DNA of 22,053 nucleotides. Source: Fibrobacteria bacterium (GTDB taxonomy: Bacteria > Fibrobacterota > Fibrobacteria > UBA11236). Below are positions 4,947 to 21,967 of this stretch, in pieces (the stretch's first letter is position 1; each line of letters opens with the position of its first letter). Under the pieces are notes generated by a model, which saw nothing but the letters and a program-made list of their open reading frames with translations, was not told the origin of the DNA and did no database searches. Location: positions 1-22,053 of the forward strand of contig JBGTHM010000033.1 of the NCBI GenBank assembly GCA_041746255.1, read 5' to 3'. Made by a program: the position numbers and the translations under genes.

Positions 4947-5614
4947 GCGAACAACCGTCTCACATCATCCAGACTGAGTTCGTCCATGCGTTTTACCACC
5001 CGGTGGGCTCCCGTGAGTTTATCCGCCGCGTGGGTGGTGGCCACCCCGACCACCTTCATTCCGCCGGCCAAAGCGGCGTCTATGCCGAATTGGGCGTCTT
5101 CGAAAACGAGGCAATGCTCGGGTGCGCGTTTAACCCTGTCGGCGGCCAGGAGGAATACCTGCGGATCGGGCTTTCCGGCTTGCACGTCTTCCGCCGATAC
5201 GATGGAGGCGAAATATTTTTCCAAACCGAGAACCTGCAATGCAGTAGTGATGTTCAAACGGTGGGTGGAAGAGGCGAGAGCGCAGGACATTTGGGCATCG
5301 AAGAGTTGAGCGAGGAATTCCCGAACACCGGGTAAAACCTCCAGGCCCTCGGCGAGAATTACTTCCCGGTACAACTCCTCTTTTCGCAGGGAAAGCCGCT
5401 TCACTTCCGCGGGATTATCCGTCCAGGCCAGGATGGAAGGAATGATCTTTTCGTTTTTCATGCCGAAGCCGCGTATGAAATGTCCGGCGGGGAGAGGTTT
5501 ATCGGACTCCTCGGCGAGTAATTCCCAGCTTTTTTCATGTGCCCTGGAAGAGTCGATAATGACTCCGTCCCAATCGAAGAGCATGCCGATTTGATGGAGT
5601 GTGGGCAAAGTCAT
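4943..5614 (-). CDS. HAD-superfamily phosphatase (beta-phosphoglucomutase/CbbY-like, subfamily IA)
   Basis: Motif I FDWDGVIIDS, motif II LASST, motif III GKPDP, motif IV VFEDAQFGIDAA. Start uncertain (5614 chosen; ORF open to 5659). ATGA overlap with the acyltransferase. Confidence 0.9.
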   Translation of the reverse strand: MTLPTLHQIGMLFDWDGVIIDSSRAHEKSWELLAEESDKPLPAGHFIRGFGMKNEKIIPSILAWTDNPAEVKRLSLRKEELYREVILAEGLEVLPGVREFLAQLFDAQMSCALASSTHRLNITTALQVLGLEKYFASIVSAEDVQAGKPDPQVFLLAADRVKRAPEHCLVFEDAQFGIDAALAGGMKVVGVATTHAADKLTGAHRVVKRMDELSLDDVRRLFA

Positions 5615-5790
5615 CGGATTCGGGTCTCCCTGGGCCACTTGCTTTCGCATGGCGTTCAAGTGGCGTATATGGATGCGGCTTTAATGTTAAAAATTTAACG
5701 ATCTCCGGCAATTTGGCCCTTGCCATGGATTCCCGAATATGCGTTTTTATTATCCCAGTAAACTTTTTTCACGATAGGGAGGCGAGTACT

Positions 5791-6234
5791 ATGGGCGCAT
5801 TGGATACCTGGAAAAAAAGTAAGCCGGTGGAAAAGGCCCTGGAAACCATGGGTGGGTTGTGGAGCAGCCGGGGTGGCGGGAAATCCTCACAGGGAATACC
5901 CGGATTTTCGGGGTCACCGACGGTGGACCTTTCGGAGGATGATAAGGAAATCGTGATAAAGGCCGAAGTTCCCGGGCTGACACAGAAGGATCTGGAAGTT
6001 TCCTATACCGGGGGCTATCTCACCCTCAAAGGCGAGAAACGGCAGGAGACCGAAGACCGCAAGAAGGGTTCCTATTACCGGGAGTCGTGGTACGGTAAAT
6101 TTTCCAGGACTATTCCCGTGGGACAAGAGGTGGAATGGGAAAAGGCGAATGCCCAATACCGCGATGGGGTGCTGCGGATTAGTATTCCGAAAAGATCGGG
6201 AGCGCCCGAAAAAACACGGATAAAAATACAATAG
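5791..6234 (+). CDS. Hsp20/alpha-crystallin small heat-shock protein (copy 1)
   Basis: VDLSEDDKEIVIKAEVPG, LTLKGEK, YGKFSRTIP, ANAQYRDGVLRISIPK, terminal IKI motif; SD GGGAGG precedes ATG 5791, so the longer ORF-track start is not used. Confidence 0.93.
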   Translation: MGALDTWKKSKPVEKALETMGGLWSSRGGGKSSQGIPGFSGSPTVDLSEDDKEIVIKAEVPGLTQKDLEVSYTGGYLTLKGEKRQETEDRKKGSYYRESWYGKFSRTIPVGQEVEWEKANAQYRDGVLRISIPKRSGAPEKTRIKIQ

Positions 6235-6248
6235 GAAGGAGAAAAAAT

Positions 6249-6674
6249 ATGATTTGGAATTTCGAACCATTCAGCGAATTGGAGCGTATGCGGCGCGAGA
6301 TGGACGGTTTGTTCGATCGCATGGGTTTCGCGACTACCGGATCTTACGCCACTTTTCCGGCCATGAATCTCTATGAATCGGATGAGGATGTCACCATCCT
6401 GGTGGAACTGCCCGGCGTGCGCAAGGAGGACATTCAACTCGACCTGCGCGAAAACGTTTTGGTCATCTCCGGCAAGCGCGAACCCGAGGACGCCGGTCAG
6501 GAAGCGGTAAACCTCCGCAAGGAAAGGATGGCCGGCGAGTTTCGTAAAACCTTCCGGCTTCCGGTCAAAGTGGATTCCAACCGGGCGGATGCCCAGTGTC
6601 GGAACGGCATACTTACGCTTAAAATGGCGAAGGCCGAAGAAGCCAAGCCTCATCAAATATCCATTCAAGCCTAG
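6249..6674 (+). CDS. Hsp20/alpha-crystallin small heat-shock protein (copy 2)
   Basis: EPFSELERMRREMDGLF N-terminus, ELPGV, LVISGKR, GEFRKTFRLP, NGILTLKMAK, terminal ISI; SD AGGAG. Confidence 0.94.
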   Translation: MIWNFEPFSELERMRREMDGLFDRMGFATTGSYATFPAMNLYESDEDVTILVELPGVRKEDIQLDLRENVLVISGKREPEDAGQEAVNLRKERMAGEFRKTFRLPVKVDSNRADAQCRNGILTLKMAKAEEAKPHQISIQA

Positions 6675-6683
6675 GAGGACAAC

Positions 6684-7082
6684 ATGGCAACGGAAGTTTC
6701 AAGAAGGGGACGCAAAGAGGTGAGCGCTTCAACCACGGAGAATGTATCCCAAGTCTCCAATGCCTATGAAGCCGATGCGGATATTTTCAGCACGGAATCG
6801 GAATTGACCTTATACCTGGATTTACCCGGCGTGGAAAAAGGAGCGGTAGAAATCGAGCTGGATGAAACCAACACTTTGCAAATCAAAGCGAAAGGATCGG
6901 TTGAAGAGCCGAAGGGTTTGCAATTTCGCGAGTTCCAAATCGGGGATTTCTATCGCGCCTTCCGCTTGGGCGAGGAATACGATCGCGATAAGGTTTCGGC
7001 GACGCTCGAGAACGGCGTTCTTAAAGTCAACGTACCCAAACGAGAAGAAGCGAAGCCCAAACGCATCGCCATCAGCGCTTAG
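6684..7082 (+). CDS. Hsp20/alpha-crystallin small heat-shock protein (copy 3)
   Basis: ADIFST, DLPGVEK, REFQIGDFYRAFRL, ATLENGVLKVNVPK, terminal IAI; SD AGGAGG. Confidence 0.93.
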   Translation: MATEVSRRGRKEVSASTTENVSQVSNAYEADADIFSTESELTLYLDLPGVEKGAVEIELDETNTLQIKAKGSVEEPKGLQFREFQIGDFYRAFRLGEEYDRDKVSATLENGVLKVNVPKREEAKPKRIAISA

Positions 7083-17067: not shown

Positions 17068-17696
17068 AGAAATCGAATTACCCAGCCGGGATGGGAAAAG
17101 GAAATAAGATGATGTCCGCCCGGTATCAGGGTGACATTCGTCGCGGTTTTAGGGGGACGGATGAGCCAATCGCTCTCGCTGTGAAGCCTCAGGACCGGGC
17201 AGGTGGGAGCGGCGCCTTTCCATCCCAACATCAATCGGGGAAAGCCTTTCATCAAGGAATCGGGGAATTCACCTATCATGTTGTAGAGTAACGACTCTGA
17301 ATTGCTTGCGAAAACCTTCTTGAATTTCAGCGCCATTACCACAAGGGGATACGCCGATTTTGCCACCCGTACAGGTATCACGGGCGCAAAGTGCGCGGCG
17401 AACCGGAAAAAAGGACGGATATCTCCGAAGTGAGAACAGGACGACATCAACAGGACTTTGCGGGCCCCGCGCAAGCGGGCGATTTCCAGGGAGAGCATTC
17501 CGCCGAACGATAGGCCGCCTATAATGTCGTCCGGGCGGAATCCGATTTCGTCGGCCAATCGCGCAGCATAGGTCGTGATGGTATCGCCGGGTTGCAATGG
17601 GATGAAGTCGACCCGTTTAAACGGCGGATCGGGAAGCTCGAGGCGGGTAAAGGCCCGGCTATCCAAAGCGTATCCTGGGAGCAGAAAAACCCGCAT
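17010..17696 (-). CDS. Alpha/beta-fold hydrolase
   Basis: FLLPGYALD oxyanion region, nucleophile elbow GLSFGG, acid in HSESDWLI, His in GGHHLI. ATG 17696 chosen (17717 possible). 3' end overlaps mqnA by 58 nt. Confidence 0.85.
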   Translation of the reverse strand: MRVFLLPGYALDSRAFTRLELPDPPFKRVDFIPLQPGDTITTYAARLADEIGFRPDDIIGGLSFGGMLSLEIARLRGARKVLLMSSCSHFGDIRPFFRFAAHFAPVIPVRVAKSAYPLVVMALKFKKVFASNSESLLYNMIGEFPDSLMKGFPRLMLGWKGAAPTCPVLRLHSESDWLIRPPKTATNVTLIPGGHHLISFSHPGWVIRFLYEAAEMDPPEEKAEPVTG

Positions 17697-17801
17697 AGCT
17701 ACCGCCCGGAAAGACATTTTCCAAAAATTCCCGATAACTCTATATATTATAGAGCGCAAACGCCTACAAGGCCTGTGAACCGTAAAAAAGGAAAAACCGG
17801 T

Positions 17802-19040
17802 ATGCCCATCGACAACCCGAGACCAGCAAAGGCCGCTACTTTGAACCGCGCAGAAAAAGGCGATTCCGCTGATGGGCCCAGGGTGGGTGAGGTATTCGCG
17901 GGCCGCTATCTCATTGAGCGGCACCTTGGATTAGGCAGTCTATGCTCCAACTTTCTCTGTATCGATAAAGCCGACGGCGACCAGGAAAAAGTTCTCAAGG
18001 TACTCCTGGCTCGCAAAGCCGCTGATCCCCATTTGGCTCAAGGCTTTATTTTCCTCGCCGACTCCGTTTCCCGCTACCGGCACCCGGGAATTAACCGGGT
18101 GCTTGAAACGGGAACCCACCTCGGGTCGGCTTATTACACTTCGTCGTTCATTTCCGGCAAACCCATGCGAATATGGCTTTTGGAAAAACTGGAATTCGAT
18201 CAGCGCGTACTTCCGGGCCTGGACCTGCTGAAACAATTGGCGGATATTTTCACATCCATACATGAACTCGGTTGTTATGGATGCCTTAAACCTGAAAATG
18301 TTTTTTTGATTGAGGGTGGACCCGTAATCACCGACTTCGGTGTAGTAGGCTTTCTGACTCCCCAGGAATTCGAATTCAATACCTATGCCAGACGTTACCT
18401 ACCCTATATGGCTCCGGAGTTGCGGCAGGACTGGAATAATCTGCTTCCGGAAAGCGACTTGTATTCCCTGGGCGCGATCGCATATGAAATCCTGGCCGGC
18501 CGGCCTCCGTCTCCTTCGCTGGCTCTTCCCAGTCAGTTAAGCCCGCGATTCGGATGGGAAATGGACGAATTCATTCTGAAGGCATTGGCGGTGGATCCGG
18601 AGGACCGGTTCCATTCGGCCTCCGCTTTTCGACGGGCGCTGGAAGGCGTTGAAATGGCCCTTAAAGCAACCCTTTCCAAGCAGGCGGTTTCCGCTCAAAA
18701 TGTGCCGGACATTGCCGAGGCGCCCATCCGGGAACAGGCAGCGGGTACCGAAACCATCTGGCAGATGGTGGACGAAAAATCCCCGGCAGAGTTGGAGGCG
18801 GATTCTATGGAAGAGGCTGATGTCAGCCTTTATCCTGAGCATTTCACTCCCAAAATCGAGATTGCCAGGCAACCCGAGTTCGCTTGGGGAGGCGTGGAAA
18901 GGGAATTACCCGCTCGCACCGATTCCCCCGACGATGCCGAAGAAGAGAGTACACCCGCATGGTTGGTGGCGATACTGATTTTATGCGGCGCGCTTATGGT
19001 TGGACTTTCCCTCTTTTGGGGCCTGCTTTCCACCTATTGA
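17802..19040 (+). CDS. Hanks-type Ser/Thr kinase-like protein, probable pseudokinase, with C-terminal membrane anchor
   Basis: GRYLIERHLGLGS, VLKVL, HPGI, LKPENV, TDFG, YMAPE, SDLYSLGAIAYEIL, KALAVDPEDRF; HRD replaced by YGC; acidic linker then hydrophobic WLVAILILCGALMVGLSLFWGLL. Start uncertain (17802 ATG or 17775 GTG). Confidence 0.85.
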   Translation: MPIDNPRPAKAATLNRAEKGDSADGPRVGEVFAGRYLIERHLGLGSLCSNFLCIDKADGDQEKVLKVLLARKAADPHLAQGFIFLADSVSRYRHPGINRVLETGTHLGSAYYTSSFISGKPMRIWLLEKLEFDQRVLPGLDLLKQLADIFTSIHELGCYGCLKPENVFLIEGGPVITDFGVVGFLTPQEFEFNTYARRYLPYMAPELRQDWNNLLPESDLYSLGAIAYEILAGRPPSPSLALPSQLSPRFGWEMDEFILKALAVDPEDRFHSASAFRRALEGVEMALKATLSKQAVSAQNVPDIAEAPIREQAAGTETIWQMVDEKSPAELEADSMEEADVSLYPEHFTPKIEIARQPEFAWGGVERELPARTDSPDDAEEESTPAWLVAILILCGALMVGLSLFWGLLSTY

Positions 19041-19179
19041 TCGCCAGCCTCCTTAAATGGCGTAATTTTTCCTGGCTTTTTTCCGGCGAGACGGTATAAA
19101 ATTAGGCCGGTCGAAGTTGGGGTCTTCCTGGGTTCATACCACATGCTGGTGTGAGCGCCGTTGGATTGGGAAAAGACTA

Positions 19180-19527
19180 TTGCAAACTATCCGTATCGAA
19201 GGAATTAACGCGCTGGGGCACGGTGAAGCCCGGATCTTCGAATTCGAGAACAATGGGAAAACGATACAAGGGTTTCTTCTCCGCCATGGTGGGCATTATT
19301 TCGCCTATCGCAACCAGTGCTGTCATTGGCCGGTTCCATTGGATTTGGGAGACGGGGACTTCTACTATGCGGCTATCGACAGGATCACATGCAAAACCCA
19401 CGGCGCCACCTATATTCCCTCCACCGGCGATTGCGATTCAGGTCCCTGCGCGGGTGCGCGTCTAACCCGTTACGGGGTAAAGATTGAGAACGACGCTATT
19501 TGGGTGCTCATAACGGAGGAAGACTGA
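19180..19527 (+). CDS. Rieske [2Fe-2S] ferredoxin
   Basis: AYRNQCCHW (CxH) and ITCKTHGATY (CxxH), GDCDSGPCAG. TTG 19180 has purine-rich GGGAAAAG upstream; ORF open from 19117. Confidence 0.9.
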   Translation: MQTIRIEGINALGHGEARIFEFENNGKTIQGFLLRHGGHYFAYRNQCCHWPVPLDLGDGDFYYAAIDRITCKTHGATYIPSTGDCDSGPCAGARLTRYGVKIENDAIWVLITEED

Positions 19528-19555
19528 ACCCGATAGGGTTGGTTGAAGGGGTGCC

Positions 19556-20980
19556 ATGAAGGAATTATTGCAGCGCATGGCCAAGCGCGAAGTGAAGGCC
19601 TTCGAAGTATTCTATGACCGATACGGGAAGGCATTCTACAGTTTCGCCTTTTGCATTTGTAAAAACAAAAGTGAAGCGGAAAGCCTAATCGGCGACACCT
19701 TCCGGTCCATCTGGGAAAACGCAGATGCTTTGGCGAATTCGAAAACCTCGATTTTCGGAACGCTGATTTCCCAGATACGCTATGCGGCGCTCGACCGACT
19801 GCGTTCGCGTGGATTCGGCAACCGACGCCAGGATTTCGCCGAGATGGAAGAAACCGACGTCTTCTGCGAGGAGAATTCCACCCGTCGACTGGATAGTGTA
19901 ATCCTCTCCGAAAGGGTCGCCGCGGCCACGCGCGCCTGGGGTAGGCTGAGCCAGGAGGAAAGGGACTTTCTCGAGGGCGCCTATTTTCAGGGGATGCCCC
20001 AATCACAATTATCGGAGCGATTCGGACTTCCTCCCGCGGTGGTTCGTTCGCGTCTGCGTATCGGGCTCTATAATTTATTGAAAGCCTTGCGCGAGTCGAT
20101 TCCCGGGGAAAGCGTTCCGATAACGACATCGGATTTCGCCAAGGACAGTTTCCGCGAATGGGCCGCGGCATTCGTGGTTGGGGCACTGGACGGCTCGGAG
20201 TTGGAACAATTCCAGTCCCGCATAAAGGACGCAGGAAACGCGGAAAAACGCATTTATAATGACCTGCTGGAGTCCTGCTGGTACTTGTCGCTGGTCACAC
20301 CACAAGAATGGCCTTCTCCTCGACTTAAACAGACCATTTTACTCAAGGTCCGACCCGATGCGGGCGCCGTCCGGGAGGGTGGTTGGGAAGGGGCCAGAGC
20401 CAAACCACCGCCGCATCACGCCTTATTGTATGCCTTAGGGTTGACGCCGGCCGGCTTCAATCGTTTCCTGGCCGCCTTTTTCTTTCTATCGACATTGTGT
20501 TTGGCCGCCTACGTCTATTTTTTACGGGAACAAATGTATGGGAACTGGGGGGTCATGGCCCAGCAGCGACAGATGCTGGTCTCATTGCGTGAGGGCGTCG
20601 AGAGTCGTGACTCCATGCTGACCATTCTCCACTCCAAGCGCCTGGAAGCCGTGGTACTGGAGGGGACGTCCCAGCATCGCCAGGGATACGGGCGGCTGAT
20701 GTGGAAACCGGGATCGCAAGAAGGGCTTCTCATGGTGCATCGACTACCCGATCCCCCCGAGGGCCAGTTTTTCCGCCTCTGGATTTTTCGCGACAACCTG
20801 CCGGTAAATGGAGGGGATCTTTCCCTTCGGGGAACCTGGGAGAAACCGGGAATCTATCGAATTCCTCTGGTCGAATCGGATCGAAGACGGATCAATGCTT
20901 TCGCCATCACTTTGGAATCCGATCCGAATGCCACCGCACCTGGTGGTCCGACCTATTTAATGGGAAATCCCCTCCTGTAA
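19556..20980 (+). CDS. ECF sigma factor (SigK-like) fused to an RskA-type anti-sigma factor
   Basis: aa ~1-85 sigma region 2 (AFEVFYDRY...AALDRLRSR); aa ~125-180 region 4 (LSQEER...AYFQGMPQSQLSERFGLP...SRLRIGL); aa ~200-265 anti-sigma domain (AAAFVVGALD, PSPRLKQTIL); TM helix FLAAFFFLSTLCLAAYVYFL; RskA-like C-terminus (LPDPPEGQFFRLW, FAITLE...PGGP). No internal stop. Confidence 0.85.
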   Translation: MKELLQRMAKREVKAFEVFYDRYGKAFYSFAFCICKNKSEAESLIGDTFRSIWENADALANSKTSIFGTLISQIRYAALDRLRSRGFGNRRQDFAEMEETDVFCEENSTRRLDSVILSERVAAATRAWGRLSQEERDFLEGAYFQGMPQSQLSERFGLPPAVVRSRLRIGLYNLLKALRESIPGESVPITTSDFAKDSFREWAAAFVVGALDGSELEQFQSRIKDAGNAEKRIYNDLLESCWYLSLVTPQEWPSPRLKQTILLKVRPDAGAVREGGWEGARAKPPPHHALLYALGLTPAGFNRFLAAFFFLSTLCLAAYVYFLREQMYGNWGVMAQQRQMLVSLREGVESRDSMLTILHSKRLEAVVLEGTSQHRQGYGRLMWKPGSQEGLLMVHRLPDPPEGQFFRLWIFRDNLPVNGGDLSLRGTWEKPGIYRIPLVESDRRRINAFAITLESDPNATAPGGPTYLMGNPLL

Positions 20981-21037
20981 AATTCTAGTTTATCCGCAGA
21001 CACCGGAGTTACGCTTCCTTATTACCAGGAGACTTTC

Positions 21038-21967
21038 ATGTTCATTCCCAGTCATTCCAGCGCCGCTCTTTATATGCGTAAAGATCGCCTTCCCGTAGTC
21101 AACCACGATAAAGCCGGCAACAAACTGAATCACCCGGCGCCCAAAGCGGCCCGAATTTTCGCAGATTCAGCCACCTGGAAGGATATCGAACCCCTGTATT
21201 TGGCCGGTATCATTAACGGTATCACAACCAACCCCACTCTACTTAAAAAAGCCGGGGCGGGATCCTGGAACCATGCCAAGGAAATCATGCAGGATTTGTG
21301 CCGTAAGCTGGCGCCTAATCCGGTTTCGCTGGAACTCACCGAGTTGACCGAAGACAAAATGCTGCGCCAGGCCGAGGAGTTGGCGGCTTTGGGGGAAAAT
21401 TCGGTCATCAAAGTGCCGGTGGGCGGCTATGCGGCCATCGACCCGAAAGCCGACCCCTTCACGGGATTGAAGGTGATTCGCAAATTGTGGGAACGTGGTA
21501 TCAAGGTGAATTGTACGCTTATTTTCAACACCACTCAGGCCTTCTGGGCGGCGAATGCGGGCGCTACCTATGTAAGTCCCTTTTTAGGGCGCTTGGCCGA
21601 CTATGGCTATAAACAGGATTTACCGGAACGCGCGCCGGGAAATTCTCTTTATTGGGTGGAAGATCATAAAAATGAACGTGGTGATCAGAAGATGCATAAT
21701 ACCGAATACGTGGCGTCGGGTGGACCGCTGAAAGATTCGGGCGCCAGGCTGATCCATGAAATTGCTACGGTCTTTGCGAATTATCAGATCACCACCGAGG
21801 TTTTGGCGGCCAGTTTTCGTAACGAGGTGCAGGTGATGGAATGTCTTCTGGCAGGCGCGGATATTCTTACGGTACCGGCCAACATTCTGGCCACGGTGGC
21901 GGATCACCCTTTGAGCGACGCGGGGATGAAGTCTTTTGTGGAGGATTCGAAGGCTTTTTCGGGTTGA
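21038..21967 (+). CDS. tal: Transaldolase (small TalC/FSA-fold type) with insertions
   Basis: IFADSA, GITTNPTL, PVSLE, Schiff-base IKVP, NCTLIF, YVSPFLGRL, LAASFR, HPLSDAG; the Glu in VSLE and Phe in SPF indicate transaldolase rather than fructose-6-phosphate aldolase; SD AGGAG. Confidence 0.88.
   Translation: MFIPSHSSAALYMRKDRLPVVNHDKAGNKLNHPAPKAARIFADSATWKDIEPLYLAGIINGITTNPTLLKKAGAGSWNHAKEIMQDLCRKLAPNPVSLELTELTEDKMLRQAEELAALGENSVIKVPVGGYAAIDPKADPFTGLKVIRKLWERGIKVNCTLIFNTTQAFWAANAGATYVSPFLGRLADYGYKQDLPERAPGNSLYWVEDHKNERGDQKMHNTEYVASGGPLKDSGARLIHEIATVFANYQITTEVLAASFRNEVQVMECLLAGADILTVPANILATVADHPLSDAGMKSFVEDSKAFSG

Follow-up and report, generated by a model that had tools for sequence, protein, structure and literature searches.

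The window studied here, a stretch of 22,053 nucleotides that makes up all of contig C33, carries on its + strand a gene (19556..20980) for a 474-aa protein in which an ECF-sigma-like head is joined to an RskA-type anti-sigma factor. This protein is probably a locked membrane sensor and not a working sigma factor. Sequence comparisons show a true fusion, restricted to one genus and under purifying selection, in which sigma regions 2.2-2.4 are relaxed and in which the region-2.3 Trp and the autoregulatory promoter have been lost. The gene is identified by its open frame, its Pfam matches and a counterpart in a second species of the same genus. We refer to the genome that carries it (4.59 Mb) as G000 and to that of the second species as G001.

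Domain architecture of the fused protein

All features described here lie on the + strand. The protein begins with a degenerate sigma2 domain (aa 1-86, 19556..19813; Pfam and comparison with G001), of which regions 2.2-2.4 (aa 38-84, 19667-19807) are relaxed as judged from G000/G001 identity, followed by a sigma4 domain with a basic recognition helix (aa 126-177, 19931..20086). The fusion junction (aa 178-197, 20087..20146) leads into a class I-like anti-sigma domain (ASD) that lacks a zinc motif and has four predicted helices (aa 198-266, 20147..20353). Next come a single transmembrane (TM) helix recognized by hydropathy and in the model (aa about 301-325, 20456..20530), a periplasmic helical stalk (aa 326-362, 20531..20641) that forms part of a continuous model helix spanning residues 298-358, and an RskA_C extracytoplasmic beta-sandwich (aa 363-474, 20642..20977) that is 80% identical to its G001 counterpart.

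When the whole protein was compared with Pfam, Sigma70_r2 matched aa 19-86 with 23.6 bits, just below its cut-off of 24, while the matches to Sigma70_r4 (aa 130-174, 25.6 bits) and RskA_C (aa 337-465, 33.7 bits) were above theirs; residues 1-180 alone scored 24.8 bits for Sigma70_r2 and 29.0 bits for Sigma70_r4. The score for TIGR02937 was 44.6 (cut-off 42.9). According to Pfam, TIGR02937 and the structure model, sigma2 and sigma4 are present and sigma3 is absent, as in ECF sigma factors, and the four-helix non-zinc ASD, the one TM helix and the RskA_C ectodomain are those of RskA-type class I anti-sigma factors. A single hydrophobic segment was found, with a Kyte-Doolittle peak of 2.11 at aa 305-323; the 474 residues contain no HxxxCxxC zinc motif, and there is no Met between residues 147 and 327. 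Pfam, hydropathy and the motif search therefore agree with the initial annotation, which had placed sigma2, sigma4, a linker, an ASD without HxxxCxxC, one TM helix and RskA_C in one 474-aa frame that has no in-frame ATG at the junction. The linker that it had put at about 20 residues is indeed present, but its new part is shorter (~15 residues, about 179-193), because the anti-sigma factor of split relatives starts at about residue 193.

Two features of the RskA_C region are recorded here. Its modelled fold (20642-20977) is similar to that of the beta-sandwich in Cu/Zn superoxide dismutase, with VIA Z about 10 and an rmsd of 2.6-2.8 A for ~105 residues. Both fusions have a Gly-Thr pair at the beginning of the domain (aa 370-371, 20663-20668), of which the Thr is absent from the split relatives. 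A Gly-Thr self-cleavage motif is mentioned for anti-sigma factors in the accessible text of PMC7509140, and its equivalence to aa 370-371 is putative.

The fusion is genuine and restricted to one genus

G001 encodes the same collinear fusion, alignable without gaps over all 474 residues and identical at 70% of amino acids and 71% of nucleotides (pS 0.65 and pN 0.17 for the gene overall). A contig from sequencing run X1 covers positions 19100-21400 with 0 differences and 0 gaps, although X1 is possibly the source of this DNA and hence not independent; runs X2 and X3 yielded no match to the stretch. An indel or stop at the junction, or close relatives that are all split, had been named at the outset as observations that would overturn the fusion; no indel was seen, and G001 disposes of the latter. 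In 13/13 split family pairs examined, the stop codon of the sigma gene overlaps the start of the anti-sigma gene or is only a few bases away from it, and relative to these relatives the fusion added ~15 codons. The RskA alignment matched 15 of the 32 family genomes and 15 of 296 genomes across the phylum, all of the latter in the same family, and the genes were fused in G000 and G001 only. A metagenome scan with both fusions gave no further orthologue and one distant sigma among 544 candidate stretches, and protein searches by word index brought up few relatives. Together these comparisons confirm, at the level of sequence, that the fusion is genuine and not an assembly slip, and that it is restricted to one genus among the genomes searched.

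The junction (aa 178-197) is identical in G000 and G001 at 18/20 residues, with pS 0.74 and pN 0.055 (binomial p 0.037 for the 20 residues and 0.13 for the 15 new ones). Of the segments defined beforehand it is the most conserved, yet 50/455 sliding windows also reach 18/20, which weakens the view that it is the most conserved stretch of the protein; the best-conserved windows sit in RskA_C, starting at aa 389-404. The junction thus seems to be kept at the protein level, under constraint of modest significance.

Locus and history

The gene is preceded by a Rieske ferredoxin gene (19117..19527, +), found directly upstream of sigma in 5/5 syntenic loci, and followed by a transaldolase/FSA gene (21038..21967, +), found downstream in 4/5. 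G000, G001 and three genomes of other genera in which the pair is split (G003, G012 and G002) all have the gene order HU, MqnA, hydrolase, kinase, Rieske, sigma, RskA; intact frames occur in four genera. G017 is different in that a canonical pair lies behind the transaldolase gene, and in most other family genomes read there a transaldolase or an unrelated gene directly follows Rieske and the sigma pair is missing.

In a tree of the sigmas the fusions and the split syntenic orthologues fall together in a six-row clade (94/97), and a group of the fusions with G002, G012 and P0111 is supported at 98/94, although long branches could draw degenerate sequences together. This nesting indicates, by parsimony, that the fusion is the derived state.

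The kinase gene (17592..19040, +) encodes a membrane-anchored Ser/Thr pseudokinase whose catalytic loop reads YG[CAV]LKPEN, without the HRD Asp, in 5/5 loci read. Its homologues are present in 27/39 genomes of the order, mostly without an adjoining sigma pair. Both observations indicate that this neighbour is not coupled to the sigma pair as a dedicated partner, and for the same reasons we discarded activation of the sigma by the kinase. A role for the fusion as a decoy in trans for a canonical SigK is not supported either: with the queries used, neither another SigK-like sigma nor another RskA was detected in G000, G001, G012 or G002.

Three further observations concern this region. The split syntenic anti-sigma factor of G002 (L048:7958-9103) has an acidic N-terminal extension of ~100 residues before its ASD. 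A 372-base X1 contig matches the RskA 3' end and the start of the transaldolase gene (20945-21103) with 148 other letters between them, and comes from a relative with the same gene order. Finally, the window contains three tandem frames (5599-7082) for putative small heat-shock-like (Hsp20-type) proteins, a label based on reading of the sequence.

The promoter-melting half of the sigma domain is eroded

In regions 2.2-2.4 the two fusions are identical at 21/47 positions (45%), versus 78% for sigma4, ASD and RskA_C (Fisher p 9e-6; the rate test compares two fused sequences only). In canonical split family pairs, regions 2.2-2.4 were the more conserved part in 29/29 comparisons, by +9 to +28 points, these pairs sharing sequences and therefore not being independent. 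Among 154 split Ignavibacteria-class pairs the lowest 2.2-2.4 difference was -7, versus -31 for the G000/G001 fusions. Region 2.1 of the fusions is conserved at the usual rate, and the specificity loop is identical between them at only 1/9 positions. The positions that read the -10 element also differ (Y/H76 and A/Q77), while they are invariant or nearly so in canonical paralogues.

Both fusions have Thr69 in place of the region-2.3 Trp. This Trp was found in 0/2 fusions, 1/3 split syntenic orthologues and 10/10 canonical paralogues; it was also present in 41/42 split sigmas selected by RskA (49 loci minus four without a sigma in view, one partial and two with the sigma downstream) and in 12/24 other fusions. 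In sigmaH the equivalent Trp is described as stacking on a flipped -10 base, and its replacement (W81A) as strongly lowering transcription (10.1101/534826, available text); residue equivalences to sigmaH rest on spacing and alignments. The fusion accordingly lacks both the region-2.3 Trp and the conserved specificity loop by which ECF sigmas melt the -10 region.

Profile scores gave a similar picture. The fusion sigma is the weakest of the 20 Sigma70_r2 matches in G000 (26.3 bits, the next scoring 36.2). The sigma parts of the fusions score 24.8 (G000) and 28.0 bits (G001), and the ten canonical paralogues 49-62 bits. The 44 split sigmas picked solely by their RskA neighbour range from 27 to 73 bits, one of them below 36, and the G000 fusion lies below all of them. 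The next-weakest Sigma70_r2 matches in G000 belong to two tandem divergent sigma70-like frames of 266 and 388 aa (contig C101:274-2453).

All segments of the fusion have pN well below pS, and regions 2.2-2.4 are still under purifying selection (pN 0.32, pS 0.60). Residues 63-72 are altered, yet 8/10 are identical between the two fusions, which fits a changed and not a lost function. The DAED-type motif of region 2.2 reads EAES or EAEG, in which positions 1 and 3 are acidic and position 4 is lost; the core-binding acidic residues E40, E42 and D/E47 are kept, and the linker motif N89, Q92, D101 and F103 is invariant in 7/7 aligned sigmas including the canonical one of G008. A predicted complex between sigma2 (aa 1-90) and the beta-prime clamp helices encoded in the same genome scored 0.00 and weighs on neither side.

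The identity, Trp and specificity-loop data indicate that the promoter-melting half of the sigma has been released from its normal constraint. The split syntenic orthologues are likewise degenerate, which indicates that the erosion probably predates the fusion. The initial annotation, in which this degeneracy goes unmentioned, had assumed a working sigma that awaits release; the relaxed regions 2.2-2.4 and the lost Trp argue against this.

Sigma4 is conserved and the model is closed

Sigma4 is conserved at the canonical rate, with 85% identity between G000 and G001; its recognition helix is 92% identical, and R164, S165 and R166 are kept. The recognition helix is lost in two degenerate split orthologues, those of G012 and G002. 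Sigma4 of the fusion contains no Cys, and Cys35 is the only Cys common to both fusions. Redox control through the SigK cysteines was discarded because the cysteine pair is absent.

The initial annotation had called for the intramolecular sigma/anti-sigma contact to be modelled. The AlphaFold model of the fusion (mean pLDDT 80.9, pTM 0.52) places sigma2 and sigma4 in the closed arrangement of SigK: they match RskA-bound SigK (4NQW_A) with TM 0.83 and rmsd 3.8 A in Foldseek, and with VIA Z 14.3 and rmsd 2.4 A over 146 residues, versus an rmsd of about 25-28 A from polymerase-bound ECFs. The predicted closed conformation is compatible with the tether, and may echo 4NQW as a training structure. 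In class I anti-sigma factors contacts are made by helix 1 with sigma4 and by helix 4 with sigma2.1-2.2 (PMC7406223, available part), which makes it plausible that a short linker leads out of the final helix of sigma4. Genes for RseP-like, Prc and ClpX proteins are present in G000. The TM helix is rich in Phe and Leu and has no Ala-Ala motif common to both fusions, so that its sequence lends no support to a proteolysis step.

The autoregulatory promoter is absent from the syntenic loci

The motif [AC]ATCC-N16-CGTATCT occurs exactly, just upstream of the gene, in 10/12 canonical sigma genes (one of the ten from the unpublished genome G021), and near versions of it were read by eye upstream of the remaining two. 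We read it as the autoregulatory promoter that belongs to the family's canonical SigK-like sigma. The exact copies lie near position 1350-1530 of loci L163, L160, L169, L167, L154, L168, L158, L164, L165 and L153, the last from G021. Second copies upstream of secreted-looking genes in G009 (L151), G004 (L150) and G017 (L149) mark possible regulon members.

Upstream of the syntenic sigma genes the motif was found in 0/5 cases, the best match having two mismatches at a distance of 2.3 kb, and the single matches in G000 and in G001 are each inside open frames. A search for a retained regulon in G000 was negative (one motif, versus 0-3 for control spacers); this null result is weak because canonical genomes themselves show only 1-2 exact matches. 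A TATAAAAT-type element (19093..19106, +), common to G001 in the alignment upstream of the Rieske gene, is a candidate housekeeping -10, and we infer that it may drive the Rieske, fusion and transaldolase genes. A consensus scan gave no sigma70 promoter at its threshold.

Comparison with known systems

The closest match in sequence and fold is SigK/RskA (ECF19/ECF18; complex 4NQW). Like the fusion, this system has a non-zinc class I ASD, one TM helix and RskA_C, and the split relatives of the fusion have its usual two-gene layout. The fusion differs in being one polypeptide and in lacking the two conserved sigma4 cysteines of SigK and the region-2.3 Trp; with 69.3 bits against a cut-off of 226 for the SigK model NF007228, it falls outside SigK (ECF19/ECF18).

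Sigma/anti-sigma hybrids are known (PMC7826278, PMC5411451, PMC8999054, PMC7509140, PMC7406223, PMC7776599, 10.1101/534826, PMC5826349; accessible parts). An experimentally characterized case is IutY of Pseudomonas putida (ECF243), a 374-aa protein with a cytosolic sigma, one TM helix and a periplasmic cell-surface-signalling anti-sigma domain, from which RseP releases an active sigma of ~23 kDa (PMC5411451). Like the fusion, IutY crosses the membrane once and unites the functions of sigma and anti-sigma factor in a single protein. Unlike IutY, the fusion has an inhibitory domain of ~70 residues between sigma and TM helix, an RskA_C sensor, and Rieske and transaldolase genes as neighbours with no adjoining gene for a TonB-dependent receptor, which sets it apart from the ECF243 type. 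ECF48, ECF52 (SCO4117) and ECF53 have a fused zinc anti-sigma domain and TM helix (PMC7826278, PMC8999054, PMC5826349). As in the fusion, sigma, a cytoplasmic anti-sigma-like domain, TM helix and an extracytoplasmic domain form one chain, which poses the same puzzle of release. These groups, however, are actinobacterial, with an HxxxCxxC zinc finger and carbohydrate-binding or Pro-rich ectodomains, whereas the fusion has no zinc motif, carries RskA_C and comes from a family that we assign to Fibrobacterota, since the RskA of one family relative bears the label Fibrobacteres.

ECF204 anti-sigma factors contain RskA, DUF3040 or DUF4367 domains, and the ECF is said to be fused to the anti-sigma factor "in some cases" (PMC7826278); this group is described from Actinobacteria only, with a GGAACC/CGGTGTA promoter, and the text available specifies neither the type of fused anti-sigma factor nor its functionality. 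Beyond that sentence, the largely open-access literature accessible to us (outside Table S2 of PMC7826278, which could name such subgroups) contained no sigma-RskA fusion, no fused pseudo-sigma and no eroded sigma joined to a full RskA. The one-polypeptide design, put forward as possibly novel in the initial annotation, had thus been described in IutY, ECF48/52/53 and some ECF204 members; the proviso that it might already define an ECF group holds for the hybrid class, but in the same literature no group defined by an RskA fusion was found.

PhyR and the predicted membrane anti-anti-sigmas beside ECF51s9 are, as the fusion probably is, sigma-like folds paired with an anti-sigma factor that are no longer sigmas. 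PhyR-type mimics titrate the anti-sigma factor in trans and so free a real sigma, whereas the putative mimic in the fusion is tied to its own anti-sigma factor. ECF43 (EcfP/PknT; PMC8999054, available part) shares with the fusion a non-canonical region 2.2 and a nearby Ser/Thr kinase gene. In ECF43 the third DAED position is Ser/Thr, the kinase is active and there is usually no anti-sigma factor; in the fusion that position holds an acidic residue (E42), the kinase next to it is without a catalytic Asp, and the anti-sigma factor is part of the protein.

A proposed locked pseudo-sigma sensor and its alternatives

The explanation that we favor, and to which we give about an even chance, is that the fusion is a pseudo-sigma/RskA sensor closed on itself, and that any output it has passes through sigma4. 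A two-gene pair of the SigK/RskA type would have come to lie in the Rieske-transaldolase operon in a single family of Fibrobacterota; there the pair would have lost its autoregulatory promoter, and the sigma its residues for promoter melting. With sigma release no longer of consequence, the overlapping stop and start could have disappeared in one genus, a linker of ~15 residues joining the genes. The resulting protein would cross the membrane once and would consist of a head in which the sigma-like and anti-sigma parts stay paired for good, a stalk in the periplasm and RskA_C as the sensor. It would be expressed together with its housekeeping neighbours, and its pseudo-sigma module would not start transcription as sigma factors usually do. 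A signal from the envelope, received at RskA_C, might then trigger cleavage by a site-1 protease and RseP, and trimming or opening of the ASD in the cytoplasm might free the conserved sigma4 helix-turn-helix, which could act as a non-initiating regulator by binding -35-like boxes or the polymerase flap. As a whole, this chain from periplasmic cue to regulation by sigma4 is tentative and somewhat doubtful.

A serious alternative, to which we give rather less than an even chance, is that the protein is, in line with the initial annotation, a working one-component ECF of shifted specificity, closed in cis, and activated by RseP plus partial cytoplasmic degradation up to the conserved Pro-rich junction or by adopting an activating conformation of the RskA type without release. 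The canonical rate of sigma4 evolution (85% identity), the retained acidic core-binding residues, the 18/20 identical junction residues and the TIGR02937 score of 44.6 versus 42.9 are consistent with it. So are the presence of RseP-like, Prc and ClpX genes and published precedents: the IutY hybrid works (PMC5411451), SCO4117 activates genes despite its fused zinc finger and TM helix (PMC5826349), and RskA can also activate SigK (PMC7509140), all according to the accessible text. It is difficult to reconcile, however, with the loss of the Trp and with -10-reading positions that differ between the two fusions (Y/H76, A/Q77, 1/9 in the loop), and intramembrane cleavage would, unlike in IutY, leave the full inhibitory domain attached. 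Absence of the autoregulatory motif also speaks against it, although a changed specificity or a mere loss of autoregulation would have the same effect.

It is improbable that the protein is a slowly decaying relic in which selection acts only on folding and on the TM/periplasmic part, for a structural or scaffolding purpose, the sigma-like head serving as a folding partner of the ASD without passing on a signal. In favor of this reading, lineages have lost different DNA-contact residues (sigma2 in the fusions, sigma4 too in G012 and G002), split orthologues have very long branches, the pair is missing at the Rieske neighbourhood in most family genomes read there, and the best-conserved windows are periplasmic. 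Against this stand the intact frames in four genera, pN well below pS in all segments, the 92% identical sigma4 recognition helix and the conserved new junction. It is highly improbable that the fusion reflects an error of assembly or that the frame yields two proteins by way of an internal start: a single indel would fuse genes that overlap by a few bases and an in-frame TTG is present at codon 178 in both genomes, but G001, which was assembled independently and is 71% identical in nucleotides, has the same fusion, its ~15 extra codons show many synonymous and few replacement changes, the junction has no ATG, and by eye no Shine-Dalgarno-like run precedes codon 178.

If the pseudo-sigma reading is right, some proteins labelled "ECF sigma with C-terminal extension" would not be sigmas, and joining a full ASD could mark lost sigma function and not a new release mechanism. 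At or near this one locus, relatives form a natural series of a canonical split pair with promoter, a degenerate split pair without promoter and a degenerate fusion, by which escape from self-inhibition in ECF48/52/53 becomes testable by simple comparison. If instead the sigma works, the fusion would add a member with an RskA sensor to a design already known. The host is uncultured, which limits immediate impact.

Sigma-RskA fusions in other bacteria

The 150 best representatives include 23 further proteins of 433-611 aa in which an RskA-like part comes after a sigma domain, and 17 of these have a Pfam RskA_C match (E up to 1e-4). Named members come from Rokubacteria and Paenibacillus piri, and genome loci are labelled Ignavibacteriales and Chlorobiaceae. 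In the atlas, one cluster combines r2 with RskA_C (60 members) and another contains RskA_C with r4 in 31% of its 121 members. The fusions are polyphyletic: in a quick tree a single origin was rejected (16 fused versus 20 rows, AU p 1.7e-32). Of the 50 RskA loci inspected among 74 matching genomes of the Ignavibacteria class, only the centre locus was fused. Fusion is rare per genome.

It is possible, though we consider it unlikely, that SigK/RskA pairs repeatedly become membrane pseudo-sigma sensors by losing melting, then fusing, and signalling through a repurposed sigma4 helix-turn-helix, which would act as a repressor or bind the polymerase flap in place of initiating transcription. If so, the G000 gene and the Ignavibacteria-type fusions would be independent cases of undescribed one-component regulators annotated as sigma factors. 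In 15 other fused pairs, some of whose ASDs are unaligned to match columns, the within-pair 2.2-2.4 difference ranged from -7 to +31, and sigma2-specific relaxation as a rule for all fusions was rejected on this range.

Two groups of fusions deserve mention. The Ignavibacteria-type fusions P0023, P0038, P0088 and L053:4989-6431 have a zinc-like ASD and an altered yet highly conserved sigma4 recognition helix, which is 92-100% identical among the four. The fusions of loci L053-L055 are divergent from a gene that, from its N-terminal motif, we take to encode a phosphofructokinase-like protein. The fusions P0073, P0077 and P0086 are interspersed with split Ignavibacteria-class pairs and show hardly any additional erosion of the sigma; they may be young fusions or frameshift artefacts.
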